This document shows positions 9,701 through 59,449 of a stretch of 64,000 nt of DNA, piece by piece. The notes under the pieces are model-generated. The model saw only the letters and a list, made by a program, of their open reading frames with translations. It made no database searches and was not told where the DNA came from. How positions within the stretch are numbered: the first letter of the stretch is position 1; each line of letters begins with the position of its first letter. A program made the position numbers and the translations under genes. This DNA comes from Stegostoma tigrinum (Eukaryota): the NCBI RefSeq assembly GCF_030684315.1, contig NC_081375.1, positions 32,539,073-32,603,072 on the forward strand. Reading direction: 5' to 3'.

Positions 9701-10962
9701 GAACATCAGAGCAAAAGCTGAAGAAACAGACAAAGTCATAAAGTGACAAGGCAATGACAAAACATATGTTGACAAGTGACTGTACACATAGAAATTGTAA
9801 TTTGAATTTGGAGACTGGGTTTGCATCAAACAAACTAACCTTGGCAACAGCCTTATATTATCTCTTATGGAGCTGCTCTCTGTGCTGTGTGGTATGTGTT
9901 AGTTAAGCCTGTGGATGTCCTTACAAAAGAAACTGAAACATGCAGCATGCCTGAGAAAGGAAACGTTTTAAAAGCATGTAATAACCTCCAGTTCACACAT
10001 AGAATCCAATGTGTCGTCTCTACATACATCTTATGCATGAAACTGTATAGGATCACTTGCATTCTTTTCTGTGTCTCACTTATTTCCCTTCTTTTATTGA
10101 TTTCTTCTTATATAATTTCCTTCCCCTTATGTTAGTTTATTTTTAGTTGTTTTTCATCAATATAAACATGATAGTTACAGCATGTAGATTTTGACAAAAT
10201 GATTACTGCATTGCTTGATAAATCAATTTCTATAGAACTATTTTTGTATCTGAGTAGAGAGTATGCACAACAGTCACATTGAATCTTTCTAACATATATC
10301 ACCAGAGTAACCTTAAATATGGATTGCTTCATATCGTTCATGCTTTCTTCCAGTCAAATTGCCTCTCACCTCACCTGACATATCATCTCATTAAGTTCTC
10401 AGACCATTATAAATGTACATTATCATTATCACCTATTCCTACGCACAAAGCGGGAATACTGATTATAAATTAGGCCATAAATGAAAGAATGGAAATGGGG
10501 AAAAACATGACTAAAATGATAATGTTATTTTGATAGCCTTTAGTGAGCCAGTACTCTCAGTGGAGCACTGAAAGCATCAGCTTTCTGTTTCCTTTCCTTG
10601 CTCTGTTTCATAAAACTGAAGAACAGTTCTTCAAATATGGTAATTCAGTACTGTATAAATTTTTTACTAGAAAAACATGATTTCCAATTGTATCATAGGT
10701 GACATGTACCATGTAAAGAGGTTGAATCAGACAATCAGCAATGTTGCATTTTCAACGAGACAAGCTGAGACGAATTCTGGCCTTTTCATAACAATCCTTT
10801 TGTGTACACTCCTTTGAACATATATAATTGCTGCCAGTACAGAATATAAATACTGCTAAAAGGGGATATGAAGTTCAAGCTTTTCATCTTGCACTCGTCA
10901 GGAATAAGCTGCAAAAAACAAACTTGCAAAATGTGACACCATGTTAGCAACAAGAAAAGCAG

Positions 10963-11880
10963 TTGCTAATCTGCTCCCACGATAAGACATTCCACTCCCG
11001 CACATCCCAGATGTCCAAGTTCTTCAAGGACCGCAACTTTCCCCCCACAGTGATCGAGAACGCCCTTGACCGCGTCTCCCGTATTTCCCGCAACACATCC
11101 CTCACACCCCGCCCCCGCCACAACCGCCCCAAGAGGATCCCCCTCGTTCTCACACACCACCCTACCAACCTCCGGATACAACGCATTATCCTCCGACACT
11201 TCCGCCATTTACAATCCGACCCCACCACCCAAGACATTTTTCCATCCCCTCCCCTGTCAGCTTTCCGGAGAGACCACTCTCTCCGTGACTCCCTTGTTCG
11301 CTCCACACTGCCCTCCAACCCCACCACACCCGGCACCTTCCCCTGCAACCGCAGGAAATGCTACACTTGTCCCCACACCTCCTCCCTCACCCCCATCCCA
11401 GGCCCCAAGATGACATTCCACATTAAGCAGATGTTCACCTGCACATCTGCCAATGTGGTATACTGCATCCACTGTACCCGGTGCGGCTTCCTCTACATTG
11501 GGGAAACCAAGCGGAGGCTTGGGGACCGCTTTGCAGAACACCTCCGCTCAGTCCGCAACAAACAACTGCACCTCCCAGTCGCAAACCATTTCCACTCCCC
11601 CTCCCATTCTCTAGAGGACATGTCCATCATGGGCCTCCTGCAGTGCCACAATGATGCCACCCGAAGGCTGCAGGAACAGCAACTCATATTCCGCCTGGGA
11701 ACCCTGCAGCCATATGGTATCAATGTGGACTTCACCAGTTTCAAAATCTCCCCTTCTCCTACTGCATCCCTAAACCAGCCCAGTTCGTCCCCTCCCCCCA
11801 CTGCACCACACAACCAGCCCAGCTCTTCCCCCCCACCCACTGCATCCCAAAACCAGTCCAACCTGTCTCTGCCTCCCTAA
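10963..11880 (+). pseudogene. 5'-truncated PLE ORF: RT C-terminal/linker region plus GIY-YIG endonuclease
   Basis: Linker CNRRKCYTC, NVVYCIHCTRCGFLYIGET (GIY-YIG with CxxC), RFAEH, VANHF, RRLQEQQLIFRLGTL..GIN; no RT core and no true ATG start. Confidence 0.9.
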
Positions 11881-12196
11881 CCGGTTCTTCCTCTCACCCA
11901 TCCCTTCCTCCCACCCCAAGCCGCACCCCCAGCTACCTACTAACCTCATCCCACCTCCTTGACCTGTCCGTCTTCCCTGGACTGACCTATCCCCTCCCTA
12001 CCTCCCCACCTACACTCTCTCCACCTATCTTCTTTACTCTCCATCTTCGGTCCGCCTCCCCCTCTCTCCCTATTTATTCCAGTTCCCTCTCCCCATCCCC
12101 CTCTCTGATGAAGGGTCTAGGCCCGAAACGTCAGCTTTTGTGCTCCTGAGATGCTGCTTGGCCTGCTGTGTTCATCCAGCCTCACATTTTATTATC
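10971..12196 (+). mobile_element. Young Penelope-like element (Neptune type), 5'-truncated
   Basis: Uninterrupted ORF remnant to the stop at 11880, pyrimidine-rich 3' UTR, HHR motif; short TSD TGCTAAT at 10964-10970 and 12197-12203. Confidence 0.93.
12105..12134 (+). ncRNA. Minimal hammerhead ribozyme motif (PLE-associated)
   Basis: CTGATGA-A-GGGTC-TA-GGCCC-GAAACGTC-AG; conserved core boxes, stem II, palindromic ACGT in place of stem III. Confidence 0.75.
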
Positions 12197-13069
12197 TGCT
12201 AATTTGTTGGGCCATCATTGGCAGATGGATGCAGCAAGGCCAGCTAACTGTCAATCTTAATTCTCAAACCAAGCAGGTAGATTCTGATTAGTCAGGATAT
12301 TGCCTCAGAATACAGCAGAAAATTGATTGTCTCTGTAACTCTACTTATATCAAAAAGGTGCACGATTATTTCTAGGAGCTTATATGTAGCCACAAAAATG
12401 GGAGGTTAGGGATTAGGTGAGTAAATTACTTCCTGCCTGCCTTTCCACCATTCATAAGTCAGAATGTGCTGAAATATTTTCCACATTCTTGGTTAACCGC
12501 AGTTCCAACAATACTTAATGAGTTTGAGACCATTCAGGACATAATAACATACTTGAATCAGACTCCATTCAACATTAAACAATTTCCCCTAATTTCACAG
12601 GTGAAATTTCTGGCTTCACTTGTCAGAACTTGGGTCTCTTAATCCAGAAGCCTCCATCTAATAGAAATAGTTTCTTCATGCCCGCTGTATCTTTTCACCT
12701 CAATATTTTGCAAATTTCTGTCAAATCTCTTTTAAACTTTTTAAATTCAAGGAAATAAAAACCTAATTTGTTTAATCTCTATGCAAGACTTAACATTTGG
12801 CGTTCAAAGCACATTTGGGTAATATATATCATGCTTCTGTTAGAGCCAACATATCCCTTCGAAGGTACAGTAACCAGGACAGCTCACAGATTTCCTGGTG
12901 TGAGCTGACTTGGGCTTTTGTATAACTGAAGAATGTCTACTTATATATTTTATTCCTTGAGATATAAAGCACATTGACAATTTTTCCTTGTTTTCTGTAC
13001 CTGAACTACAACAACTCGCCAACACTTCTTGAACAGTAATTTCCAAATTCAGAACTTCTTTCATCTGGA

Positions 13070-13312: not shown

Positions 13313-14970
13313 AGAATCATAGAGTCATACAGCATGGAAACAGACCTTTCATTCCAACCAATCTATGCTGAACATAATCCCAAACTAAACTAGTCCCACC
13401 TCCCAGCTCCTGGCCCACATCCCTCCAAATCTTTCCTATTCATGTGTTTATCCAAAAGTCTTTTAAAGGTTATAACTGTACCCATATCTGCCACTTCCTC
13501 TGGAAGTTCATTCCACATGCGAACCACCCTCAGGTGTACAAAATTTGCCTCTTGTCTTTTTTAAATCTCTTGCCTCTCACCTTAAAAATGTGTCTCCTAA
13601 TCTTGTAACCCTCCACCCCCCCCCCCACCTCCAAGGGAAAAGACAACTACCATCTATTCTATCTATACTTTTTCATTATTTTATAAACTTCTATCAGATC
13701 ACTTCTCAACCTCGTACGGTCCATTGAAAAAAAATTCCAGCCCATCCAGCCTTTCTTTCTAACTCAAACATTCCATACCGAGCAGAGTCCTGGTAAATCT
13801 CTTCTCAACTCTCTTCAGCTTGATAATAACCTTCTGATTACTCAGCAACCAGACTGGACATAGTATTCCAGGAAAGGCCTCACAAATCTCCTGTACAACC
13901 TCATCATAACTTCCCAACTCCTTTATTCAAAGGAATGAGCAATGAAGGCAAGTGTACCAAATGCCTTTTTTAACCACCCTGCCTCATCGTGACACAAACC
14001 TCAAAGAACAATGTAACTGAACCCCTCGGTCTGTCCTTTCTGCAAAACTACCCAAGACCCTAACATTTAATGTATAAGCCTCACCCTTGTTGGCTGTACC
14101 AAAATGCAATACCTCACATTGATCCAGATTGAAGTTCATCTGCCATTTTTCAGCCCATTTAATCATCTGTAAAGCTTAAAAAATCTTCTGCAATGTCTAT
14201 GATGCTACCAATTTTGGTGTCATCTGTAAACTCACAAGCCATACCTTCTATATTCTCATCCAAATCATTTATATAAAGACAATAAAAGACAGCAGGTCAT
14301 GGGCCTCCAGTCTAAGAAGGAATCCTCTACCATTACTCTTTGTCTCCTGCCTTTAAGCAAATTATGTATCCAATTGACAAGCTCACCCTGAATCCCAAGT
14401 GACCTAACTTTACTAATTTGTCCACCGTGCAGAACCTTGTCAAAGGCTTTACTGAAATCCAAATAAACAATGTCTACTGCTCTGTCATCATCAATCATTT
14501 TGATAACTTCCTCAAAAAATTTAATCAAGTTTGTGAGACGTGATTTTCCTCACATATAACTTTGCTGACCATCCCGAATCAATTTTTCCTCTCTAAATGT
14601 CCATAAATCGTATCTTTTATAATCATCTCAAACAATTTGCCCATAACTGAAGTCAGACTCACAGTTCTATCATTCCCCATATTTCTTTGCAATCTTTCTT
14701 AAACAAAGGTATAACATTAGCCACCCTGCAGTCATCAGGCACCTCACCTGTGGTTAGAGATGATGCAAACATTTCTGCAGGAGTCTTGTAATTTCTTCCC
14801 TTACTTCCCACAGTGTTCTGGGATACATTAGATCAGGTCCCAGAGATTTATCCACTTTTGTGTTCTCTAAGACCTCCTGAACCTCCTCTTCTGTAAGGTG
14901 AACTGTTTTTTTAAAACATCAAAGTTTATTTCTCTGCATTCTCAGCACTCCATTTCTTTCTCCACAGTAA
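13313..14970 (-). mobile_element. CR1 LINE, ORF2 RT remnant and 3' end
   Basis: ORFs 14265..14528 (AVDIVYLDFSKAFDKV...WIHNLLKGRRQRV) and 13984..14166 (WAEKWQMNFNLDQCEVLHFG); tail TATGACTCTATGATTCTAT on minus. Confidence 0.92.
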
Positions 14971-19978: not shown

Positions 19979-22680
19979 TTTGACCTCTCTGACCTTTCAC
20001 TGTTCAGACCATTGCTCTTGAATCATGGTTTTCAATGATGTTTATATTCTACAGAACAGAGTACTCTTCAGACACAGCCAGAACCTAAAGTCTTGAAATC
20101 AGAGAGCCTGTGGCCTGTGTCCATGTGACAAAATTGGGGGATGTGACGTATTTCCATTACTGATCCTTTAAAGGGTTATAAAGGGTGACAGCTAGTAGGT
20201 AAGTGACTGAGAAGGTTGGATCTGCATTGCATGGTAAATGTGACTGATTTTGGTGGGGGAGAGGTTGTCATTTTTATATTTAGCCAACAGTTCAAGCAGG
20301 TTTCAATTCTGCTCCCTTCTCTTGGTTAAGTATTAACAAAAATAAATTTGAACTGTCTAAAATCTCCAACTCTAACTCAAACTTTGTTTTCTTCTGTGGA
20401 GGGGCCCAGATGCCATATAATCACTCATCAGAAGTTTCAGCTTTTCAGCCAATTACCGACTGTTCAGATACCAGATGTCCTGGGTTAATGTTTTTTGTTT
20501 TCACTTTCAATCTTGATGAATTGTTGAGCTTGTCACCTGACCCAATGTGCAAGTAGCCTCCGTCCATAATTGCAGGAAAGGTCAAGAGCATGGGAAAAAA
20601 GAGCTAAGAGTTTAGAACCACAACAAGCCCTGTTTCATAACATTCTTCCTCATGAAGCTGTTGGATGCACAGAGTCATGCATGTGGCGTTGAAGTGGATG
20701 AGATTGTAGCGTTTTGGTGAGGTCAATTTGCCCGAAAATCTTGCAGACTTTTGCTCTTCTGACTGTGTCAAATACCTTGGAGAGACCTATGAAAGCAAGC
20801 TGCAGAAATATAAGTTGTTTTCTACCATTCCTTTGTGTTTGGAAAAGATGATATCTACTGTTAATATGCTGGCATGGAAACTGCACTGTACATACAAGTA
20901 CATTCTATCTGCAAGTAAATGGAACCTTTTATATATGGCCTCGGTAAAGAATTTCCCCACGACATTGAGGAATGCGATTTTCTGCAGTTTTTGCAACCTG
21001 CTCTCTCATGTTTTGTTTTGTACATTGTGATGATTTTTGTGTCATGCCCCTCTGGTAGACTGCAGTTTACCCTCCAGTAGAGAAAGAGAAGATCGTAAGA
21101 GGAACTGTAATGGATGGGACTTCACATACTTGAACAGTTGACTGAGTTCCAAACTTGCTGGCTGCCTTTCAGTTCACAAGGCACTTTACAGTCTTCTTGA
21201 GCTAAAGTGATGAAGGTGCTTCAACTAACTTAGCCATGACAAGAAGCTGCAGGAGAGCATCTGTTTGAGGAATGTCTGCCTCACCAGCAGTACAACTCAC
21301 AGTCGTTTCCAGCTCAGCAGGACATCAGGTTAATGTTGTTGCTAAGTATTTCACTGTTGTCTATTGGGTGATGGCAGTGTAAGTGCCTTTTTGACGCCTC
21401 ATAGGTTTCCATTACTAAGGCAGTTTGGATTTCTTGACATATTTATGAACTATCTGTTTGAAATTTGCCATATCTGTCTTAGCTAATTTTAAGTCATGCA
21501 GTGTTTTAGCTCTTGAGTTTTATACTGTAGGCTTGTTTTTCTTTTCCATCAACGGCAGATAGCACGTCGTCTAATTAAATCTCAGGACCAGCCTCGTAAC
21601 CTAGTAATTTCCCAAGTCATTGATACTAGCATCAGTATTTCCCAGTTAATCTTTGAAAAGTACTAGCGTTTGATGCTATTACTTGTGTAAGAAAATTTAA
21701 TGTGTGGTGGGCCACTTTGTCTAAAAATGAAAATTTCAGGGGTGCACCCTCAGTCAGTTGGTGACAAAAGAGCCCTCAGGATCACAATCTGCACTGTGCC
21801 TAGTGTGGTTCTCAACAACATTAGGCATGATCACATTTTGTCATGATGACCAGGTTTAGTTGATGCCAATGTGTAAACTTTGGGGAAGACTACTCTGAAA
21901 GCTACTAGTTCATTCAGAACAAAATGCGCAAGAAGGTGTCATGGACCTTAACCACCACATGATGACTGGCATATTGTTCATCGAGCACTTTCTGCTGTGA
22001 CATGTGCAGTAAAGCCAACTGGGATGACTAGTTCCTTGACATTTTAGTTTTTTTTCTCAAAATATCGTATAGGGAGTAACAACAATGCTCCATTGCAATG
22101 TGGTTGCATTTGTGACAATACTTCGGCATTAAGAGGTGTATTTTGTCCTTTTTTTTATGAAGAGAGATTGAGTCAGAGGTGCTGAAAGTTATACCAAATC
22201 AATAAAGTAAGAAGCTTGTGAGGCCTGTTTTTTTTTGAGTTGGGACAATAGAAGCAGCATGTAGGGTAGGGTCAAGCTCGCACAGAACCAGGGTTTTAGT
22301 TTAACTTTCAGTAGCTGAAGGGGTTTGGAAGCTGGTGTACATTTCTCCCTGCTACAGAGCTTTCTCTCTCTCTCTCTGAGTTTTCTCTTGATGTTCTTTC
22401 CTCCTCAACTGGAGAAACATTGCATGTGAAACAATCTATTTTACTGGATCTGCCTTTGCTAAGGGAGTGTTTATGAGACGTTACTATCCTGGAACAGCTA
22501 ATCAGGGGCAGTTAACATATATATTATCTTGTTAAATATTTCATTGGAGTTACAGTAAAGTTTTTTTTATTCTTACTTTGTCTGTATTTTAGCTGAAATG
22601 TAAGGATAATTTGTTTTTTGCTTCAAGCCAGGTAGTTTAACCAGTCAAATTGCTTCTGGAACACAATCCCTTATATTTGC

Positions 22681-23862
22681 AGTGATCGAGAACGTCCTTG
22701 ACCGTGTCTCCCGTATTTCCCGCAACACATCCCTCACATCCCGCCCCCGCCACAACCGCCCAAAGAGGATCCCCCTCATTCTCACACACCACCCTACCAA
22801 CCTCCGGATACAATGCATCATCCTCCGACACTTCCGCCATTTACAATCCGACCCCACCACCCAAGACATTTTTCCATCCCCACACCTGTCTGCTTTCCGG
22901 AGAGACCACTCTCTCCGTGACTCCCTTGTTCGCTCCACACTGCCCTCCAACCCCACCACACCCGGCACCTTCCCCTGCAACCGCAGGAAATGCTACACTT
23001 GCCCCCACACCTCCTCCCTCACCCCTATCCCAGGCCCCAAGATGACATTCCACATTAAGCAGAGGTTCACCTGCACATCTGCCAATGTGGTATACTGCAT
23101 CCACTGTACCCGGTGTGGCTTCCTCTACATTGGGGAAACCAAGCGGAGGCTTGGAGACCGCTTTGCAGAACACCTCCGAACAGTTCGCAACAAACAACTG
23201 CACCTCCCAGTCGCAAACCATTTCCACTCCCCCTCCCATTCTTTAGATGACATGTCCATCATGGGTCTCCTGCAGTGCCACAATGATGCCACCCGAAGGT
23301 TGCAGGAACAGCAACTCATATTCCGCCTGGGAACCCTGCAGCCTAATGGTATCAATGTGGACTTCACCAGTTTCAAAATCTCCCCATCCGCAACTGCATC
23401 CCTAAACCAGCCCAGTTCGTCCCCTCCCCCAACTGCACCACACAACCAGCCCAGCTCTTCCCCCCCACCCACTGCATCCCAAAACCAGTCCAACCTGTCT
23501 CTGCCTCCCTAACCGGTTCTTCCTCTCACCCATCCCTTCCTCCCACCCCAAGCCGCACCCCCATCTACATACTAACCTCATCCCACCTCCTTGACCTGTC
23601 CGTCTTCCCTGGACTGACCTATCCCCTCCCTACCTCCCCACCTATACTCTCCTCTCCACCTATCTTCTTTACTCTCCATCTTCGGTCCGCCTCCCCCTCT
23701 CTCCCTATTTATTCCAGTTTCCTCTCCCCATCCCCCTCTCTGATGAAGGGTCTAGGCCCGAAATGTCAGCTTTTGTGCTCCTGAGATGCTGCTGGGCCTG
23801 CTGTGTTCATCCAGCTTCACACTTTATTATCTTGGAATTCTCCAGCATCTGCAGTTCCCATT
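22681..23862 (+). mobile_element. Young Penelope-like element (Neptune type), 5'-truncated
   Basis: 276-aa GIY-YIG ORF remnant 22682..23512, nearly identical to the 10.9 kb copy; TSD ATCC(C/G)TTATATTTGC at 22666-22680 and 23863-23877. Confidence 0.93.
23740..23769 (+). ncRNA. Minimal hammerhead ribozyme motif (variant GAAATGTC)
   Basis: CTGATGAAGGGTCTAGGCCCGAAATGTCAG. Confidence 0.6.
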
Positions 23863-25249
23863 ATCCGTTATATTTGCCTTTTAAAGTAAGAAAAAGTTGG
23901 GGTTTAGGCTATCTTCTTAATATAATTTGAGGGGCTTTGGTCCGGTCCAGAACATATTGGAGCATAAGATGCTACTGCACATCGATGAGATGATAACTGC
24001 ATGAAGATGAAGGAGTCTGAAGTTGCTACTGTTGGGTGAATTGATTGTGTCAGCTCATTGTTTGCTACAAAGTCTACAACATGCTCACAATCACCCTCAG
24101 CACTTCTTCCATGCTTATAATTAATTTCTTGATCAGAGTGTGTGTCAGCAACTCTGCTTTCTTGTAGAACAGAGATAGTGGAGTGAGCAGGGAGGTGTTC
24201 AGAGTTGGTAACTGCGCAGCCAAGCCCAGTCTCCTTAACAACAGGAAGCTGGTAACAACTAAGCAGTACAGGAAGTGCATAAGGTTGAAATTTTCACTTG
24301 TATTTGTAATATTAGCCATTTATTCCAATGTTGAACCAAATTCGTTTAGCTCATGGTCAAACAGGATGTACACTTGAAGTGGAATTTAGCTCACTATTCG
24401 TAGCAAGGTACATAGTCCTCGCATTCTAGCCTCCAAATGAAAAGTTTCCTCTCTTTTCTTTCCTCTCATTCCTTTGGATTCTCTCCTGAATCTGGGAAGC
24501 AGCAAACTCAAGCTGGTCTGTTCATATGTTAACAATAACATCAAGAGTTAATGACTAAGAAAGCAAACCCAACAAAATCTGAAGCAGAGTCCGATGAAGC
24601 ATTTCATGTTTCTGTAATGTTATCCAACAACTCCTGGAATCAGTTCCTTCCCCCTTTCTACTGGCTTTCACCTTCTCTGTGGATACATTCCTGTAAGTTG
24701 AGAAGAGGGTGCAGATGCCAGGTAAGTTTAGGCCTGGCCACTTCCTGATTAAGACGCAAGCCAATAATTTCCAGGTTTACAACTCATGGTGGTGAACAGG
24801 ATAAATAATGACATTTTCAGGAAGAGTTACTTCAGCTTAACAATGAAATAAAGCTCTGCCAATTAAGTCATTAACTCAACAGCAGTGTTAACAATCACAG
24901 CGATATTACTTTTCAGAACAAAAGCATTGTTCTTCACTTCCCAAACAGTGTAAATATAGCTACATAATTACATATTTCATTAGAATCCTTGGTATGAATA
25001 TCAATTATTTATATATATATTCAGCATATTACACGTTTTAGGCTAAGTCCTAGAATAATCCAAATAATTAACCAATGGTGTCAACTGTAGTTATTACTAG
25101 GTTTATCTTGGTTGTTAGAAAACATATTCTTATGTCATTATTGTTTAATGTTATGTGCCTTTCTTCTCGTCTGATATTTATGCTGGTACTTCAGTGGATA
25201 ACACAGGGACTGCTGCACTCTCAGTGGCACTCTCTATCAGGGTGAATTT

Positions 25250-29478: not shown

Positions 29479-29654
29479 AAAATTCTGCATAGCCCAGTCC
29501 ACAGCCCAGGGGCTACGCTACAGGACATTGATTAGAATGTAAAATAACAGCATGTGTCATTGAAACACAGATTTGAGTATTTTACGGGACAGGTAATTTT
29601 GAAATTAAAGCAAGTTCAATGTTCAAATACGAACTATTTCAAAATTGTGTAGCA

Positions 29655-31160
29655 GAATCATAGAGCATTGTTATAGCCAATAGAGTGTCTTTTGCACCAT
29701 TGCATCAATCTTTGAAAGAGCTGTCCAATTTAATCCCAAACACCTACTCTCTTCAAGTGTAGTCCAAATGTCTCTTGAAAAAAATATGCATTCCAGCCTA
29801 AGGAAAATTCCCTTTATTCTTCCTATTGATTAGATTAGATTTGATTCCCTTCGGTGTGGAAACAGGCCCTTTGGTCCAACAAGTCCACACCACCCCTTGG
29901 ATCATCCCACCCAGACCCATCCTCCTATAACCCACATACCCATGGTCAATGTAGTATGGCCAATCCACCTAGCCTGTACATCTTTGGACTGTGGGAGGAA
30001 ACCGGAACACCTGGAGGAAACCCATGCAGACACGGGGAGTATGTACAAACTCTGCACTGACAGTTACCTGAGGCCGGAATCGAACCCGGGTCCCTGGTGC
30101 TGTGAGGCTGCAGTGCTAACCACTGAGCTACCACACTGCCCCTAAATAACAGCATAAGTAACTGCATTTCATTTAACTTCCTGATCATTGGCTGATACTT
30201 TGCCAATTGTTTTAAATCTGTGACCTCTCAACCCACTTGCCAAAAGAATCAGCTTCTTCCCACTTGCTTTATCAAAGCTCCTTATCAGTTTGAATATTAA
30301 GTATCACTTCTATTCTAAGGAGGATGATATGATTTTCTCCCATGTCTCCACATAATTGATCAACCTCTCCTATAGTTTCTCCATGGTCTTGACATGTTTC
30401 CTAAAGTATTTTGAGCAGAATTATATGGAATATTCCAACTGGGGTCTGATGAGTGATTTTAATAGTTTTACCATAAAAGTAATTAATCCTTTGCATCACT
30501 AAGGGCAATGTATGCTTTCTTAACAATGTACCCTACTGTTCTTGCATTCCCTTTGAAATACTCCATTTAGATTATATGTCTCCAAAATGCATCACTTCAC
30601 GCTTATTCACATAAAGTTGTATCTGCCTTGCATTGATCCATTATTGTCTGTGGCTTCCTGAAATCTGCTACCATCTTATTCATTATTTACCACATTGACA
30701 AGTTTGTAATCTGCAAAACTTTTAATTGTATTTGTTATATTAAAATCAAGATCATTTAAATTTAGCAGGAAAAATACTAATCCTATAATCAATCTATTGG
30801 GGACAATGCTATATGTTTCCCTCCATGCATAAAAAACAGGTAATTTATGAGTCTTTATTTTCTAGTCCTATACCATTTACATACCCAGGTTACTACCATC
30901 CTTTTAATACTACATGCTTCTATTTGCTGAATAGGTCTATTACCCTCCATTTGATCAAATGGCTTTTGAAAGTCAACAACTCCACCATGGCACTACTTCC
31001 ATCAACTCTTTCATTTCATCAAGAAATATAATCAGATTAATTAGACATTATTTGCCCTCAACAAATCCATGCTGGTTATCTCTTATTCCCCAGGCTTCCC
31101 CAGGTGACAATTAGTTTTGTCTTTGACAACAGTGGCTAGTGATTTTCCCACCATTGACAT
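29655..31160 (-). mobile_element. Very old CR1 LINE remnant, interrupted by a SINE
   Basis: Scattered CR1-like segments (AGAATCATAGAG tail; CAAAATGCATCACTTCAC; ACAAATCCATGCTGG). Confidence 0.55.
29830..30143 (-). mobile_element. V-domain SINE (HE1-like)
   Basis: tRNA head GGGCAGTGTGGTAGCTCAGTGGTTAGC...GGTTCGATTCC and V domain on minus. Confidence 0.9.
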
Positions 31161-32042
31161 TCAGCCGATTGACAAGCAACATGTGTAATTCCTTTTAATG
31201 GAACAGGGTCTTTTTTGTTTCGATTCATTCAAGGGTTGAGTTTTTCCAAGCATTTATGCAGACCACACATTGCCCTTGATGCTGCTGAATGTGCAAATTA
31301 TATGTAAAAGACTGCCTTGAGGGTGAATGACAGGGGATAGAGGGAGGTGAGCAGAAACAGGGTCAGTTGCAGCAGCCATGGTCCTGCCTCCACGAGGAGG
31401 TGGCAGTGGGTGAGGGCAGTTGCTCCCAGTCCTAGCCACCCAGTTCCTCCATTCCCGGCCTTACCCCACTCTGGCCTCTAACCCACCCAACATGGTGATG
31501 TAATGTCACAATATGTATAATTTCCTTCCTTAAAGGACGTTAATGGATGAGATTTGTTTTTAGAACAGACTGATAGGTTCAATTACTAAGCCTAGCTGAC
31601 ATGTGCAATTCTCCCGTCTTTGCCTTCGTACCCAAATTCTCAAATTCCAGAAACGTTGTGGTGAGAGCTTCTGCCTCCCCAACCATAGATTCCTTTAGTG
31701 GATTACAGTGTATTCCATCCCAGATAACTGGTTCATCTTGAGGGCATCAACATATGCTGGAACAGATTGTAAACACTAGAGTTTGATGAGTAAGGGAGTA
31801 ACCTTTATGGGTTAATTGCTTTTGTAAAAAATATAGTATTGCTTGCAATCAGCATTTATCTTAAATTTACTGCTTAAGTTGAACGTTCTTCCAGGTTATG
31901 CAGGCTAAACAAACCCGCTGTCTGAAAGCAGGTGAAATTAGTTTATCAAATCAAAATCTAATTCTGAGAGGCTCTTGTGACACAGTGGTAGTATGCTGAC
32001 CTCTGAATTAGGAGGCCAAGCAGCATCTCAGGAGCACAAAAG

Positions 32043-32072
32043 CTGACGTTTCGGGCCTAGACCCTTCATCAG
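32043..32072 (-). ncRNA. Minimal hammerhead ribozyme motif
   Basis: Reverse complement of CTGATGAAGGGTCTAGGCCCGAAACGTCAG. Confidence 0.75.
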
Positions 32073-33017
32073 AGAGGGGGATGGGGAGAGGAAACTGGAA
32101 TAAATAGGGAGAGAGGGGGAGGCGGACCAAAGATGGAGAGTAAAGAAGATAGGTGGAGAGAGTATAGGTGGGGAGGTAGGGAGGGGATAGGTCAGCCCAG
32201 GGAAGACGGACAGGTCAAGGAGGTGGGATGAGGTTAGTAGGTAGCTGGGGGTGCGGCTTGGGGTGGGAGGAAGGGATGGGTGAGAGGAAGAACCGGTTAG
32301 GGAGGCAGAGACAGGTTGGACTGGTTTTGGGATGCAGTGGGTGGGGGGGAAGAGCTGGGCTGGTTGTGTGGTGCAGGTGGGGGGAGGGGACGAACTAGGC
32401 TGGTTTAGGGATGCAGTAGGGGAAGGGGAGATTTTGAAACTGGTGAAGTCCACATTGATACCATTAGGCTGCAGGGTTCCCTGGCGGAATATGAGCTGCT
32501 GTTCCTGCAACCTTCGGGTGGCATCATTGTGGCAGTGCAGGAGGCACCTCCTGCACTGCCACAATGATGCCACCCGAAGGTTGCAGGAACAGCAGCTCAT
32601 ATTCCGCCAGGGAACCCTGCAGCCTAATGGTATCAATGTGGACTTCACCAGTTTCAAAATCTCCCCTTCCCCTACTGCATCCCTAAACCAGCCCAGTTCG
32701 TCCCCTCCCCCCACTGCACCACACAACCAGCCCAGCTCTTCCCCCCCACCCACTGCATCCCAAAACCAGTCCAACCTGTCTCTGCCTCCCTAACCGGTTC
32801 TTCCTCTCACCCATCCCTTCCTCCCACACCAAGCCGCACCCCCATCTACCTACTAACCTCATCCCACCTCCTTGACCTGTCCGTCTTCCCTGGACTGACC
32901 TATCCCCTCCCTACCTCCCCACCTATACTCTCTCCACCTATCTTCTTTACTCTCCATCGTTGGTCCGCCTCCCCCTCTCTCCCTATTTATTCCAGCTCCC
33001 TCTCCCCATCCCCCTCT

Positions 33018-33047
33018 CTGATGAAGGGTCTAGGCCCGAAACGTCAG
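33018..33047 (+). ncRNA. Minimal hammerhead ribozyme motif
   Basis: CTGATGAAGGGTCTAGGCCCGAAACGTCAG. Confidence 0.75.
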
Positions 33048-33257
33048 CTTTTGTGCTCCTGAGATGCTGCTTGGCCTGCTGTGTTCATCCAGCCTCACAT
33101 TTTATTATCTTGGAATTCTCCAGCATCTGCAGTTCCCATTATCGCTGAATTAGGAGGCCTGGGTTTATGTCTCACCTGCTCCAGAGGTGTGTAATAACAT
33201 CACTGAGCAATTTCATTATAAAACGTACAAAAATAAATCTATTTTGGGGGGTGGGAT

Positions 33258-33360
33258 CTTGGTGTTGTGCAGTGGTTTGTCTTTAACCAAGAGGTTTGGT
33301 TTCACAACCCACCTGCTCCAGATGTGTTTCAGAACAAAGTTTTGATCAAGTTGCTTAAAA
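33258..33360 (+). mobile_element. Short tRNA-derived SINE, degenerate
   Basis: Similar to the split SINE at 31969-32017/33160-33215. Confidence 0.55.
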
Positions 33361-33989
33361 AGTTTATAATCTAGTTCTATAACTGCCAGAAAGTTCACTC
33401 AGCTAAATTTCATTAGCATATACAAGAAAGGCTGAATCGCATTTGTCATGGTGTGCAGCTGTAGCCAACTGAAATATTGAGAATTTGGTGAGCAAGGGAG
33501 TTCAGAGAGAAGGAAAGAGACATGTGCCTTTATTTCTCTAACTTCCTCAGCATGTAGGGCAGTGAGAACTGAAAAACTACATGAGGGGGAGACAAACAGC
33601 CAGTAGGGAGTCAGCTCTGTCAATCCCCATATCCCCAAAGCTACATTCAGATGAAAGTAAAAGGTGACATCATTGGGAAATGGATACCTGAGAATTTTGC
33701 TTACTTACCTTATGTCACAACATTTAAAAAGTGCTGGATTAGCATTTGAAATGTCATAAACTTAAGGTTTAGAACTAAGTGATGAAAGGGGGGACTAGTG
33801 CAGAGTGGGCGTCTTCTGTACTGTAAGGTTTTATGATTGTATGATCTTTTGAAACCCAGGAAATTTACAGATAGTTTTAAGGTTTCGTTAGTACCAGTAA
33901 TGTTTATGAGAGGTAATAAATCTTACTGGGAGCATTCGGGTGTACTGCTTACAAATTAATGACAGTAAATTGAGACACAAAGATGTCTG

Positions 33990-34837
33990 GGCAGGTGATG
34001 TGACAAGATTGCAGGATGTGAGATCCCTTGGACACCTGTGTAATCCAATGCAAACACACAGTGAGTGCCTGCAACACAGGGAACTTCAATTCAGGTTTTA
34101 TGAGCTGGAGGCTGAACAGCAGACTCATGAAGTAGCAGTAATGAAAATGCTACCAGGATTCTTTACTCCAGGTGGTTGTCACGCTCCTGATACATATGGT
34201 TTTCTAAGCTGGTCAGTTGTCAGAGACAAAAGGGTGTGAGGCAGGCATGGGCCTTAGAAGTTGGAGGGACCTCAGACTTTCCAATTGTTCAACAGTTTGA
34301 GGTACTTTGGCTTGTGTGGATGAAAGTGGAGGTTGCAGGTTGGATGGCCTAATTTACCATCATATCATGGTGAAGGAAGCCATTCAAGTGAAAAAAGAAA
34401 GAGGGAATATATTGGTGCTACAGCCAGGGCTGCTGGCATTGTTTTCTGAGCAAAGAGTGCGAGGCTGTGCTGCCCACCCTTTGTTAGAGTTTAGGGCTGG
34501 AGAGGAACTTGCAAGTGGAAGAGAAAGGATCTAGTCACTACCATGCATATAGGGAGCAATGACATAGACAGGTCAAAAACAAACAGTTTCTGCATTGGCA
34601 GTGTGAGGACCTTAATGCTTAACTATAAAGCAAAACCTTCAAGGTAATCTCTGAATCATTACCGACCCATGAGCAAATTGGTATAGGGTAAATAAAATTG
34701 GAGAAATGAATGCATGATGCAAAGACTGGTATGGCAGAAATGTGTTCTGGTTCATGAGGCACTGGTACCAGCTCTGTGGAAAGAGTGATCCATACAAGTA
34801 GGACAATCTACTCCTGAACTGACCTGGGCTTGATGTT
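33990..34837 (+). mobile_element. Degenerate CR1 ORF1 region (zinc finger/esterase-like)
   Basis: HSECLQHRELQFRFYELEAE resembles the CR1 ORF1 zinc-finger/leucine-zipper segment; downstream esterase-like remnants. Confidence 0.55.
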
Positions 34838-35160
34838 AGAATAGAATCCTTACAGTGCAGGAAAAGGCCGGTTAGCCCATGGAGTCACTGGCCCTCTGAA
34901 GAGCTTCCTTTCTGGACCCATTACCTTATCCCTATAACCCTGCAATTCCCATGGCCAATCCAGCTAGGCCACACATCCCTAACATTACAGGGCAATGAAG
35001 CTAAGCCCCCTCACCTGCACATCTTTGGAGTGTGGGAGGAAGCCGCAGCACTGGAGGAAGTCCACACAGACACAGGGAGAACATGCAAATTCCACACAGA
35101 CAGTCACCCAAGGCTGGAATTGAACCCAAGGTCCCTAGTGCTGAAGCTATCATGCCACCC
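34838..35160 (-). mobile_element. V-domain SINE (HE1-like)
   Basis: Homologous to 4113-4435, head partly deleted. Confidence 0.85.
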
Positions 35161-35502
35161 TGACACTAGTGTTTTAGTGAGTGGGGTAACTAAGAAAGTA
35201 GAGAAAGTTTTAAACTAGATAGCGAAGGCAAGGAAACAAGTTTTGAAAATGAAAGTTTGGATAGACAATCAGAAACAAAGAATAATATAGGAAATGATCA
35301 GTGATTGTGATCTCTCAGAATGAGGGTGACATCTGTTAGTCTGGATGACTCTTCAGATAACTGAGGTGCTTGATTTTGCATCTGTTAACATGGGACAAGA
35401 TAAAATGGATGGTGGCAGGAAGAGATAGAAAATTCAACTTTGAGAATAAACCACAGAAGACCAACCAATTTCAGGCTGAAATGTTGCTTCAGCAATCTCA
35501 AA

Positions 35503-35667
35503 GATAAGAGATAATGGGAACTGCAGATGCTGGACAATCCGAGATAACAAAGTGTGGAGCTGGATGAACACAGCAGGCCAAGCAGCATCTCAGGAGCACA
35601 AAAGCTGACGTTTCGGGCCTAGGCTCCTAAGATGCTGCTTGGCCTGCTGTGTTCATCCAGCGCCACA
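35503..35667. mobile_element. Short PLE fold-back insertion
   Basis: Minus arm ends inside HHR stem II (…TTTCGGGCCTAG), then a plus arm; TSD CTTCAGCAATC(T/A)CAAA at 35487-35502 and 35668-35683. Confidence 0.85.
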
Positions 35668-36299
35668 CTTCAGCAATCACAAAATCGGGTCCTGGAACCA
35701 TATGAGGAATTTTCTGCTTTTTGAGTTCTCTGCCTGAAGATCTCCATGGTGGATAGGGCAAGGTAGCATGTCCTGAGGCAACACCAACAGAAACTGGAGT
35801 CAAGCCCAATGCTGTTGACAATAATCTGATCTAAACTGGTGGTCCAGTCATCTCAATGTAACAACCTTTCATGTAATCAACTTCCTGTGGCAACATAGAC
35901 TTCCACCTACATGTTGTAGTCCTGGAACTGGGAATAGTAATGGTAGTGACTCCAATTACTCATTCATTACATGACTTACCAGGAACGTCTCCAGCTTTGA
36001 CCATCGGCCACTGGACGAATTTAGAAGTTGATACTCAATCCACTGAACCATGCAATTTTTAGGCTGAGTGTAGGTTGCAACAGAATTTATTTTTTGGAGG
36101 ACTCCTCGCCATAAGGGCTATCAGGTCTTTTTACTCTATCTTATCAAACTCATCTCATGAACTACCACCCCACTTCCAATTCTAACCTAATCTTACTGTA
36201 CATCATTCACGGAACAACTTGTCGATGCTAGGATATCTCAGAATTAGTTAGCATCTTGTGCTCCCACATCTTTTTCAAAAGACTGTTGAGCACCTGGAC

Positions 36300-37056: not shown

Positions 37057-37289
37057 AGAGACATTGATCTAGGAGTCATGTCAAATCTATAGGCAGTATT
37101 TTGAAATGTGAATGTGTAGCCTTGGAGATCATAGCCTTGCTGTGCTCTGCATTATAATTTTGGCAGGATTTTACAAAGAAAGTCCAAAATTTCAATAATG
37201 CTGGAACAGTCAAGTTGGGTGATGGGCTGCCTGCAATTCAGCTCATCACCCCTTATGTAGAGAGAATCCTAAAGCTTACTGCCCAGGAT

Positions 37290-37629
37290 CATCCCACCTC
37301 CTTGACCTGTCCGTCCTCATCCCACCTCCTTGACCTGTCCGTCCTCATCCCACCTCCTTGACCTGTCCGTCTTCCCTGGACTGACCTATCCCCTCCCTAC
37401 CTCCCCACCTACACCCTCTCCACCTATCTTCTTTGCTCTCCATCTTCGGTCCGCCTCCCCCTCTCTCCCTATTTATTCCAGTTCCCTCTTCCCATCCCCC
37501 TCTCTGATGAAGGGTCTAGGCCCGAAACGTCAGCTTTTGTGCTCCTGAGATGCTGCTTGGCCTGCTGTGTTCATCCAGCCTCACATTTTATCATCTTGGA
37601 ATCTCCAGCATCTGCAGTTTCCATTATCT
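37290..37629 (+). mobile_element. PLE 3' UTR insertion with 28-bp tandem triplication at its 5' junction
   Basis: (TCATCCCACCTCCTTGACCTGTCCGTCC)x3 at 37289-37371; TSD CTGCCCAGGAT at 37279-37289 and 37630-37640. Confidence 0.9.
37504..37533 (+). ncRNA. Minimal hammerhead ribozyme motif
   Basis: CTGATGAAGGGTCTAGGCCCGAAACGTCAG. Confidence 0.75.
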
Positions 37630-38454
37630 CTGCCCAGGATTGGTTGACCATGTCCAAGCCTCTGGGCTAATATTACAAAATGCCTGTGACTTACCAAGCT
37701 GGGAACTCTAACCAAAGGCTATACCCCTTGATTTGACTGAGGCCTGATGACAATCATGACAACTTTCCTTTTATTGAGTCCACGTGATGGGATGACAAAA
37801 CCAAAATAATGAGAAAACTGTATCTTTGGCTGAGGGGGAACATATTCAAAGGCAAGGCAGCCCAGTGCAAGTTAGATAGGTAGGAGCATCCATGTAGGTT
37901 CAGAGTGAGAAAGTGCTGTGTTAGTAACAAAAAAAGGCCCGGAAATTTGGCCAGTCCATTGAATCAGGTGGGTGCATGTCTCTGAGCACAAATGTCCTTG
38001 CTGTCGTCACAGCCCACGTCACTCAGACCCCAGTATGATTCTGCATGATGTTTTTTGATCAATTAAGGAATGGAATTGGTCATAAACCCAAGGTTTCAGG
38101 CTCAGAGGTAGGGAGATTACACAAATGCCAGAAGGCCTTCCCTTTGAGAGCCCTTGAATTCAAAATTACTTCAATGAAAATAGCTGATTGTTCATTTTTA
38201 TAATGGCAAATGGGAGCGTGTCTTAATTTTCCTTTCCTTTTCCATCTCGGTTGAAAGCAAACATTGATAATTCTGTTCACCGTAAAAATCTTGTTTTATA
38301 AAAATAACTGGCCTGAATATTCACATTAGATATATCCTGAGACAAATACCAAGGTTTTATTTCAACCTTTACTGCTGAGGCAAATTTAGCAGAAATTCCA
38401 TTCAGTGTCTGGTGTCAATATCACTAGGAGCATATTTAGGGCACCCACCTTCCT

Positions 38455-41356: not shown

Positions 41357-41864
41357 AGGGGATCACTTGAAGCTTTTGACAGTCAGTGGGTACTGAAGGG
41401 ATTGGATTGCATTGTTGACAGAGGAGGAAATGTGATGATTTAATAATGACTTAGTTATGATTAGCTGCACCACCTTAAAAATTTTGTTTGAATGTTTTGT
41501 TTTTAAATTTGCTTGATGACATTTGAGCAACACACTCTCTCCTTTGTGAACACTTATAAAGAGTGGAGACACCATGGCAAGCTTAGTCAAAGATACAGTA
41601 TGGAACAAGGATAAGGGTCAATTCCTAACTTTGTCATACACCACATTTCCCAAAATGTTTTATACTTCCAAGGCCATGATTTCTAACATAATAAAACTGT
41701 TTTATTTGTATATTTCACAAAAACATAACGAAACCTACTTGTAAACTACACATTTTGTGACTTTACATACTTCAGTTAAGGATTTGACTTGAAGGCCCCA
41801 AACTCTCTGCAGTGCACTAAAATGAATTAAGTGCACAACATTCTCCTTAAAAAAATCAAATCAA

Positions 41865-42302
41865 ATATATAACAAAGTGTGGAGCTGGATGAATACAGAA
41901 GGCTAAGCAGCATCTTAGGAGCATAAAAGCTGACGTTTCAGGCCTAGACCCTTCATCAGAAAAGGGGGATGGGGAGAGGGTTCTGAAATAATTAGCGAGA
42001 GAGGAGGAGGTGAATTGAAGATGGATAGAGGAGAGGATAGGTGGAGAGGAGGCAGACAAGTGAAGGAGGCAGGGATGGAGCCAGTAGAGGTGAGTGTCGG
42101 TGGGAAAGTAGGGAGGGGATAGGTCAGTCCAGGGAGGATGGACAGGTCAAGTGGGTGGGATGAGGTTAGTAGGTAGGAGATGGGGGTCCGAAACGACAGC
42201 TTTTATGCTCCTAAGATGCTGCTTGGCCTGCTGTGTTCATTCAGCTCCACACTTTGTTATCTCAGATTCTCTAGCATCTGCAGTTCCCATTATCTCTGAT
42301 GC
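41865..42302. mobile_element. PLE fold-back insertion (diverged subfamily); HHR motif on minus at 41930-41959
   Basis: Minus arm ~41869-42187; plus arm starts in the HHR (CCGAAACGACAGC); TSD AATCAAATCAA at 41854-41864 and 42303-42313. Confidence 0.85.
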
Positions 42303-42475
42303 AATCAAATCAACCTGTTTAGAGATGTTATTGTGCACTAGTAGATGAGACTTGAATCTGAGCCTCTTAGCTCTGAGGCAGGAACAGTACCACTGTGCCA
42401 CAAGAGCTTACAAATGAAATTAAGCACATCAGATTAGGTAAAAAAAACCTTCTTGCAGTCGGGGAGAATATTACA

Positions 42476-56824: not shown

Positions 56825-56948
56825 TGATGAGTCATCTAGACTCAAAATGTTAGCGCACTCCCTCTGCATGGATGCTGCCTGGCCTGCTGCGATCTCCAGC
56901 ATCTGTCGAATTTAGTACAGATTCCAGCATCTGCAGTAATTTGCTCCT
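56825..56948 (+). mobile_element. Older PLE-family 3' end with decayed HHR variant
   Basis: TGAT-GAGTC-ATCTA-GACTC-AAAATGTTAG followed by GATGCTGCCTGGCCTGCTG...TTCCAGCATCTGCAGT. Confidence 0.75.
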
Positions 56949-58341
56949 AAATGCATGCAAGTAAGGTAGATACCACTTAATGGTGAGATTCTAAAGTCAC
57001 CATTTAAGATTTGCTGGGAAAATTGAGAAAAAACCTCAACATTGGAGATTCTGATGTTTTCCTTCTCTCTGTATTTTTCCACCTGAACTGCCAATTGTCA
57101 CCCCACACTAGGTGGGGGAAAATTCCACCCAATGAGTTTTTCTCAGTGCAGTTTTCAACATGAAGAAAGAGAAAGACAAAATGCCAGGAATGATTCAGAT
57201 ACAAGTTAACAAAATTATAAATGAACATCAGAAAACAGTATTTATTTATGTGAATTAGAGGAAACGAAGGATTCTATTGCAATGAATGAGAAGACACATC
57301 CTAAAGAAGCATTTAAAAGTTATTGAAAATAATGCTTCAACAGATAATAGATTTTAAATTTTAAAATTAAACAGTCTATAAAAACTGCAGGGAAAGCTAT
57401 GGGTAACTGCATTATATCACAGTTTAAAACATAATTAAGATAAATAACTCTGTGCATGACCTGGTTTTCAGTTGTAAATGCTAAGTACAACGGTGTGCAG
57501 AGAAACATGCACTTATACATCCTTGAAAGTATACTGATCTTTTTTCAAGAAGGGATCAGCCTCAGACATGTCAAACAGATTTTCAAAATCTCTCAGTGAT
57601 GTAATTTTTTTCCTAGGCCAATGATCAGGCTGATTTTCTGGAATTGGTGTAAAAATCAACAGGTCTAATTCACTGTAAACATTTCACTGCGATCAGATTA
57701 AGTCCACCCTCACATTTTACTCTGCCTTGGTGCATTGCCATGTGCTCTCTAGTCTAGTTTGTGCCTATTTCTGAGACCTCATGAAAGTTGCAGAAGCTGA
57801 CAGGAAATAATACTGTAAGATTTGGTAAGCTGGGGAAATTTAAAGAAATGTACCTTTTTTGTTAAATAATTTCAGAAATTTAAATAAAGCAACTAAAACA
57901 CTTAAAAGTTATGCCAAATTTCCAAGACAAGAAAAATTACATTTAGATATATGATTAATCACAATAAATTGAAACATATCTACCTAGCAACAAAGTTAAA
58001 GCAATTATTGGCCATACCACTAATTTTCCCAAATGCATGGGAAAGCAACAGTATTCTTTGAAGCACAGGCTGTATATACACTAACCATGGAAACAGCCTG
58101 ATTACTTTGTAAGAATTATTATTGATAACAACAGGTACAAACACCGTGCAAAACTGAAGAAATCACACAAAGTATTTATTCAAGCATTTTTGCAGCAATT
58201 CATCAACTTCATGCTATGAAATAAAACAAAAGGTGCATTTATTTGTGCTTAATGTAAAACTTTGACCACATTAAAGCCTGATGTTAACTGCATCAGATTG
58301 CTCTAAACTCCAAGACACAGAATAGGCTGATCTGAGCTGGT

Positions 58342-58488
58342 AATAAAATGTGAGGCTGGATGAACACAGCAGGCCAAGCAGCATCTCAGGAGCTTTTGTG
58401 CTCCTGAGATGCTGCTTGGCCTGCTGTGTTCATCCAGCCTCACATTTTATTATCTTGGAATCTCCAGCATCTGCAGTTCCCATTATCT
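58342..58488. mobile_element. Minimal PLE hairpin insertion
   Basis: Perfect 53-bp inverted repeat 58341-58393 / 58400-58452 with loop TTTTGT; TSD CTGATCTGAGCTGGT at 58327-58341 and 58489-58503. Confidence 0.93.
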
Positions 58489-59449
58489 CTGATCTGAGCT
58501 GGTTGCAACTTTTCAGGTCCAGGCAACCAACAGCAAATATTCAAATTACCACACCCTGGCAATTTGGCATGCAGGCATGATAAAAGTAAAGCAGTGAGCA
58601 GATATTTATCCCAGCGGACTTTCACACTGCAGAACACATTGAAAGCCTAGGATTTGTTATTTACTCGATCATTCTTTCACATCCACCTGTTGTTCCAATC
58701 AAATTGTGCGCAGTGTAACAATGAGTGGATAATACTCTCACATTAAATGTAACAGAAAATCTTTGCCTCTATCTTAAAATGATGCTGCTGGGCCAAGAAT
58801 AGTGCTTTTTTTTTGTATAGTTTGCTTGCACCTCCTATGCCGACATTATTGCTTTTATTTTCAGGAGGCAATTTGAAAACAACGCACATTGAATGTTCTG
58901 CACTTAACAGTTTCAACCCTTCCATGCAATCAGCTGTCGGAATTTTGTAATGTACAGTATACTACTTTCATATCCTGCATGAGCAATACTTTAGTATTTT
59001 CATGGTGAGATTGTAATTTCTATCATTGAACTTGCTGGTTATTATATTTTGATTAATGTTACCATTGCAAAGGAAATTAAAGAATATTTTCCAATGTCAG
59101 GTGACTACAATGTTTCAAATACAAAGTTTATAACATTGTTATGTTCTGGGACAACAATTTCCGGTAAAATAGAGGAATGAAAAGGCAACTCCTATAAATT
59201 CTACCCTCCAACAATCTTGGGTGGTTGATTTTAAAGGTTAAAGGGTGAACAGGAGGCTGACAAATGGGAAATATGTGACACCTGGTTTAAAACTTAGAGC
59301 CGCTAGCAGCTTGACTGTTAAACATAATGAATTACATGAATAATCTAATTAAGAAGTAGCAAGTCAGGGGAGAGAGTAAATTGGGGAGATGATGTAATTA
59401 AGGAACCAGCTTGTCAAATAAACATCCGGAATTACGTACATTGACTGCT

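Follow-up and report, generated by a model that had tools for sequence, protein, structure and literature searches.

A nearly spacer-free palindrome in Stegostoma tigrinum as a head-to-head Penelope-like element insertion, with a hint of arm matching near its axis

Introduction

A stretch of 64,000 nucleotides of Stegostoma tigrinum (contig NC_081375.1, positions 32,539,073 to 32,603,072; here called the window, with all coordinates below counted from its first letter) contains a 1.1-kb palindrome whose arms are nearly identical and share variants close to its axis. The locus raises two questions, namely how such a palindrome was formed and whether its arms have been matched to each other since. 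The initial annotation regarded it as one insertion of a Penelope-like element (PLE) in a tRNA SINE, with one arm copied from the other either by fold-back synthesis or by later conversion.

Structure of the insertion

The palindrome is present in the sequence as described, with arms of about 530 bp facing each other across the dinucleotide CA (32545-32546). The left, inverted arm (32010-32544, minus strand) comprises arm positions 1-534 of a PLE 3' part without the terminal tail, and its counterpart in the right arm is 32547-33080. Alignment of the arms over 531 nt found seven substitutions and one indel, i.e., eight differences (98.3% identity), which are situated 148, 167/168, 282, 299, 348, 413, 450, and 452 nt from the axis. 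The right, or main, arm extends alone for 64 nt beyond the end of the left arm, up to 33144. As a whole (32547-33144, plus strand) it is a 5'-truncated PLE 3' end, consisting of the end of a GIY-YIG ORF, a C-rich 3' region, a hammerhead motif, and a tail (33111-33144) that occurs in the main arm only. An identical 15-bp direct repeat (32003-32017 and 33145-33159, plus strand) brackets the insert, so that the target site duplication (TSD) reported around the whole unit is real. The outer end of the inverted arm overlaps the last 8 nt of the left TSD copy, with seven of the eight positions matching and five exact, a microhomology. The CA at the axis may be the decayed CpG of a palindrome without any spacer, because two of the three longer copies in the window read G directly upstream of the arm start; it may also consist of one untemplated base beside one templated base.

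The flanks of the insert are the two halves of one SINE-like repeat, which is dispersed in the window (several copies were aligned) and unbroken in three other aligned copies. The 5' half (31970-32017, plus strand), which has the left TSD copy as its end, is 76% identical to 42407-42362 and can be aligned with the 5' portion of the three unbroken copies; the 3' half (33160-33225, plus strand) was likewise recognized by alignment with other copies. The host reported as a tRNA SINE therefore stands as a split SINE-like repeat. A/B-box-like motifs make a tRNA origin possible, and ARAGORN found no tRNA genes. Of the 264 open frames in the window with at least 62 codons, 105 were compared with Pfam, and no host gene was found, although short exons would escape such a scan; it returned one reverse transcriptase (RT) fragment and one sub-threshold phage match on a PLE frame.

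Identity of the element

By its sequence features, the insert is classified as the 3' end of a Neptune-type PLE. Compared with three longer copies in the window, the right arm has 96-98% identity, and the focal insert keeps only the last ~30 codons of the GIY-YIG domain. Both long copies (10948-11877 and 22610-23509) encode CX4CxxC just upstream of a GIY-YIG-like domain; Pfam matched GIY-YIG in one of the two long frames, with an E value of 8e-4 that is below the curated cut-off. The window copies examined contain no RT of the PLE family, and the linkage to RT comes from homologues with which the ORF end aligns. Four longer homologues were found among 4090 candidates, three of them carrying the RT family PF00078, and these align as an N-terminal RT followed by a C-terminal part that matches the window copies. 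The closest homologue by identity (61% over 35% of the query) is named from bamboo shark. The RT fragment returned by the Pfam scan lies at 14268-14549 (minus strand), and its match is weak (PF00078, E 1.5e-4).

According to the available text of PMC8557442, a CX2-5CxxC linker between RT and endonuclease characterizes Neptune and Nematis, and is also found in Naiad. The C-terminal position of GIY-YIG excludes Naiad, and Neptune is preferred over Nematis because it is among the most widespread PLE groups in vertebrates, as stated in the accessible part of bioRxiv 10.64898/2026.07.22.740005. Several traits of endonuclease-positive PLEs were found together in this family, i.e., RT followed by a C-terminal GIY-YIG (through the homologues), a hammerhead motif, a one-sided tail, an inverted 5'-truncated copy, and a TSD. 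Family identity and TSD together bear out the earlier view of a single PLE insertion. A MITE or a DNA transposon was considered and rejected, as the arms consist of a retroelement ORF and 3' end. Motifs of the family were also searched as exact patterns in metagenome_contigs, where they matched no loci.

Head-to-head insertions in the window

PLE insertions have been described before as head-to-head inverted repeats. In the available text of PMC3846280, the typical form is such a repeat with a palindrome at the junction, a TSD, and in some cases a tail of 31 bp, and self-priming is proposed; the same form is described again in PMC8557442, as far as its accessible text goes. Very probably, the focal insert belongs to this known form. 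Like the endonuclease-positive PLEs of those two papers, it has an inverted 5'-truncated copy joined at the 5' end, a junction palindrome, a TSD round the unit, a tail of 30-40 nt on one end only, a hammerhead near the end, a C-terminal GIY-YIG, and the CX2-5CxxC linker. It differs from the insertions described there in that its arms are equally and heavily truncated, which results in a 531-bp near-perfect palindrome with a centre of 0-2 nt, and in an inverted arm that falls 30 nt short of the usual second end.

The form is also common locally. A census of the window, excluding a weak 34-nt match at 56871 and internal 34-nt repeat matches, counted 15 family insertions, six of which are head-to-head, all six with candidate TSDs of 9-15 bp. 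The structure is no rarity. Main arms of the head-to-head insertions end at about arm position 597, and the inverted arms of all five others end at ~556-564, where solo copies also end. The focal inverted arm ends at 534, on microhomology, as would be expected if a snap-back had been resolved by annealing or if priming had taken place internally on the same RNA. The listed loose ends of the family lie at 33110 (657 contigs in X1, 656 in X2) and 33148 (407 contigs in X1), and solo copies end at either. In the Anolis Poseidon PLE studied in vitro, both target strands are cut and extended, and two RT start sites bound the tail (PMC11167929, from the text available). The two 3' ends of the present family, at about 33110 and 33144-33148, match this pair of start sites. 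However, the Anolis element belongs to the Poseidon clade and its priming is not homology-guided, whereas the focal insertion has microhomology at both ends. The available text of PMC11167929 gives no explanation of inverted copies.

The other family insertions vary in their architecture. An older head-to-head insertion at 41854-42313 occupies the 3' end of a further copy of the SINE-like host repeat and has an inverted arm of ~320 nt and a main arm of ~115 nt. Its inverted arm reaches ~200 nt further upstream than the main arm; it is therefore not a snap-back of the main arm, and a second cDNA was needed. Two mini head-to-head insertions, at 58327-58503 and 35487-35678, have TSDs of 15 and 11 bp, and their inverted arms have a common start point in the element, next to a natural 3-bp hairpin just after the hammerhead; a junction on this hairpin, as at 58.3 kb, suits snap-back. 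A complex insertion at 1342-2412, with a 13-bp TSD, contains a 745-nt main arm and a 197-nt inverted arm, between which lies a 107-nt direct repeat (2098-2204 versus 1906-2012) from a backward template jump; these arms have subfamily alleles in common and differ at 7 of 198 sites. The solo copy at 37279-37640 (11-bp TSD) has at its 5' end a tandem repeat of a 28-nt element piece, suggesting RT slippage. At the 3' junctions at 1.35, 4.8, 8.1, 33.1, 37.6, 39.9-40.1, and 58.5 kb, the terminal CT of the element often overlaps the first TSD bases, which suggests short base-pairing at priming, in contrast to the Anolis element, whose priming in vitro is reported to be free of homology. Family-wide, tail-to-tail joints connect the two 3' ends of the family (33110 to 33143, on opposite strands) in 49 contigs of X1 and 50 of X2, and may represent tandem arrays or circle junctions of palindromic units.

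Comparable junctions are known outside PLEs. R2 cDNA forms snap-back junctions (Zhang et al. 2024, PMC11371274), and L1 twin priming occurs with internal duplication (bioRxiv 10.1101/2024.08.27.596794), both according to the portions of these texts available. As in these cases, a single insertion attaches an antisense piece to the upstream target and creates a head-to-head junction. R2 and L1 are, however, non-LTR elements with other endonucleases, so the focal insert resembles them in manner and is not a member of their group. Moreover, the arms of L1 twin priming are mostly non-overlapping, deletions being the commoner class in the text available, whereas the focal arms overlap entirely.

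Hammerhead motif and predicted RNA fold

Motif scan and folding located a minimal type-I hammerhead motif at 33018-33045 (plus strand), predicted with a CUGAUGA core, a 4-bp helix II, GAAA, CG, UC, and a 2-bp helix I, in the layout shown in the available text of PMC4209133. The same sequence is mirrored in the left arm at 32045-32072 (minus strand). According to that text, a single minimal hammerhead motif is inactive and dimers have low activity. Rfam gave no matches in the window at the gathering score. Below the threshold, 30 matches fell within 31900-33300, none of them to a hammerhead; most were to miRNA-precursor models on the hairpin and were rejected as shape matches to it.

The annotation had expected that long double-stranded RNA containing a hammerhead ribozyme could arise from either strand, which the predicted fold did not bear out in this form. 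Read-through RNA is predicted to form one ~530-bp hairpin (-1210 kcal/mol). The hammerhead sequences of the two arms are base-paired to one another within this predicted duplex, so that the ribozyme would not fold there. The centre of the palindrome is 70% GC, and high GC content slows cruciform extrusion; hairpins on single-stranded DNA at the palindrome are plausible. Nothing suggests a function for the locus. Across the family, a start at 33017, where the hammerhead has its upstream edge, is frequent (718 and 703 contigs), and a cluster of strand-switch joints occurs at 33019 (in X21, 189 and 281 raw reads).

Variants common to both arms

Three variants, 32556 C, 32595 G, and 32609 A, are present in both arms at 10, 49, and 63 nt from the axis, and are found in none of the three other window copies that cover them. 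A fourth, 32961 T, is shared at 415 nt from the axis and occurs in none of six other window copies. The private variants noted earlier are accordingly real for the three near the centre, whereas the claim that they lie near the axis does not extend to 32961.

The concern that these could be common subfamily alleles was addressed for A32609. Among the 40 rows listed of the family-wide read tables (174 more exist), 32609 is the only one of the four positions to appear. In contig depth, the other letter accounts for 98.8% in X1, 99.0% in X2, and 99.4% in X15, and in X21 it is found in 73 of 76 raw reads, so A32609 is rare in the family (other letter 96-99%). It changes a leucine to glutamine, the leucine being kept in all three distant homologues that cover the column, and such a change would be unlikely in an active source copy. 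Reverse transcription errors were also considered as the origin of the three variants. Usual RT error rates are too low for three errors in 63 nt, and this origin was rejected.

The variant 32961 T is a CpG transition, and its independent origin in both arms by double decay has a calculated probability of only ~2%. For this reason, both arms probably descend from one source over their whole length.

Arm identity and distance from the axis

Plotting differences against distance from the axis, as the annotation had proposed, found none in the inner 146 nt and eight in the outer 385 nt, which agrees with its remark that the outer parts differ at several sites. The inner zone (32398-32693) is a perfect match of 147 nt per side, although each arm differs from other copies at 6-7 sites within the inner 146 nt. 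In the outer zone, the eight differences between the arms compare with six and six for each arm to the copy at 11634-12197.

The strength of this pattern depends on how it is tested, the boundary between the zones having been set after seeing the data and the locus having been picked for showing the pattern. The probability that none of the eight differences falls in the inner 147 nt is 0.075, and that of a gap of this size anywhere in the arm is 0.62. A rank test of shared versus differing sites gave p = 0.055, or 0.13 if the central mismatch is counted, and a uniform spread of the differences was not rejected (p 0.24-0.47). Shared variants, on the other hand, cluster inward (p 0.02-0.05), and a post-hoc 2x2 table gave 0.018. 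The joint probability of no differences out of eight and three of the four shared variants inside is 0.005, with a post-hoc boundary, and in a Poisson model with tract length integrated out, the Bayes factor for later homogenisation relative to chance was 6-27. The gradient alone is borderline and not significant; taken with the shared variants, arm-to-arm copying near the axis is modestly favoured.

This modifies the earlier proposal that one arm was copied from the other. Copying near the axis keeps modest support, whereas fold-back synthesis at insertion makes the whole arms identical and therefore produces no gradient by itself; as the sole cause of the gradient it was rejected. The gradient points instead to later homogenisation, two templates, polishing, or chance.

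Chance corresponds to the same insertion without any later exchange. All four shared variants would then come from a slightly divergent source copy, possibly defective and trans-mobilised, and the clean inner zone would be fortuitous. The shared variant at 415 nt and the probabilities of 0.075 and 0.62 agree with this; so do window copies with linked subfamily alleles, e.g., those at 1.4 kb and 16 kb, and an extra step becomes unnecessary. However, the joint probability of 0.005 and the Bayes factor are against it, as is A32609, whose share in the family is 1-4% at most and which alters a conserved leucine. We regard this explanation as possible, on the doubtful side.

Two templates are also conceivable. 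Two cDNAs would be made from two RNAs, one per nick; the first would snap back for ~150 nt, and the new strand would anneal to the second cDNA, so that the left arm is copied from the main arm in its inner part and stems from another family member in its outer part. The outer arm-to-arm distance (8/385) is indeed not below the distance of each arm to another copy (6), and the left-arm alleles at 299 and 452 nt match the copies 11634-12197 and 23267-23865. The insertion at 41.9-42.3 kb cannot be a simple snap-back of its main arm, and the inverted arms of all five other head-to-head insertions end at the second 3' end of the family. However, 32961 T is common to both arms in the outer zone, the focal inverted arm does not end at the usual site, and alleles that agree at position 32845, where the family varies by indels, may be homoplasious. 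An origin from two RNAs is thus unlikely.

Polishing would be a technical cause. The insertion would be real, with the inner identity or the junction introduced by consensus or short-read polishing that transferred bases from one arm to the other; in the extreme case the palindrome itself would be a fold-back read artefact. The identical zone of 147 nt is about one short-read length, and the available text of PMC8557442 notes assembly problems at such structures. Reads and contigs of four runs were aligned to one arm plus the right flank (32517-33500), where family copies swamp the locus (266,972 records in X1), and among the 24 pieces and 15 joints listed (252,944 and 738 more exist) none confirms the axis. 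The unique right flank at 33180-33500 has no differences in X1 and X2. X15, from organism B, differs from this flank at 23 sites and two gaps, and its contig stops at 33180, which makes it uninformative on the empty site. Four runs (two samples, one study) contain 0.91-0.93 of sampled words of 29500-35000, a measure that leaves the junctions aside, and one of these runs may have been the source of the assembly. Against a technical cause, fold-back of a read would mirror the flank, and could give neither a 15-bp TSD splitting a SINE in register nor unequal arm ends nor eight arm differences; polishing has no reason to act near the axis only; and five other TSD-flanked head-to-head insertions lie in the window. 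A technical origin is therefore very unlikely.

Proposed origin and later matching of the arms

The reading we prefer, with a probability of roughly 0.45 for the whole path, is a head-to-head insertion from one source followed by later homogenisation of the inner zone. The later step is supported by the lack of differences in the inner 146 nt, by the rare A32609 hitting a conserved leucine, and by precedent for template switching. Homogenisation of inverted-repeat arms by polymerase template switching, tied to short spacers, has been reported (Abraham and Hazkani-Covo 2021, PMC8604942, in the text available). The focal palindrome resembles those repeats in that one arm would template the other across a short spacer; it differs in that they have arms of 7-16 bp in yeast, while the tract here would be 60-150 bp in a vertebrate retroelement palindrome, as deduced from one locus. 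A literature search, with most subscription papers and all supplements outside its reach, found no paper on arm-to-arm variant gradients in PLE palindromes.

From these data we infer the following order of priming and repair. The protein of a Neptune-type PLE would cut both strands of the SINE ~15-17 bp apart, and one nick would prime reverse transcription at the outer start site of the family (33144), from which the tailed main arm results. In that event the mirror arm would also be made, with the same sequence as its source: the cDNA end would snap back and copy itself, or the second nick would prime at an internal position of the same RNA, with synthesis running to the same RNA end. Its outer end would be fixed to the target by 5-8 nt of microhomology, and gap filling would produce the TSD. 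The arms would have been identical at the start, each then gaining ~1% point changes. At a later time, hairpin-templated repair, in which the polymerase switches template, probably made the inner 60-150 bp of the arms match again, so that changes in this zone were either erased or fixed in both arms.

Implications

As a single locus, the focal palindrome is an ordinary example of a known PLE insertion form and carries little weight. The matching of its arms after insertion is a modest hint and is not established by one locus. More generally, we tentatively propose that short-spacer PLE palindromes persist in this genome, and that hairpin-templated repair restores the match of their inner 100-150 bp again and again. 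Comparison of arms across insertions would allow genome data by themselves to test how the inverted arm is made during PLE integration, whether from one RNA, from two RNAs, or by snap-back. If homogenisation near the axis holds across many insertions, half-kilobase and nearly spacer-free palindromes would be tolerated and actively re-matched in a vertebrate germ line. In that case, the palindromes with varied spacers that this family constantly makes would form a genome-wide natural assay of repair tract length and its dependence on the spacer.
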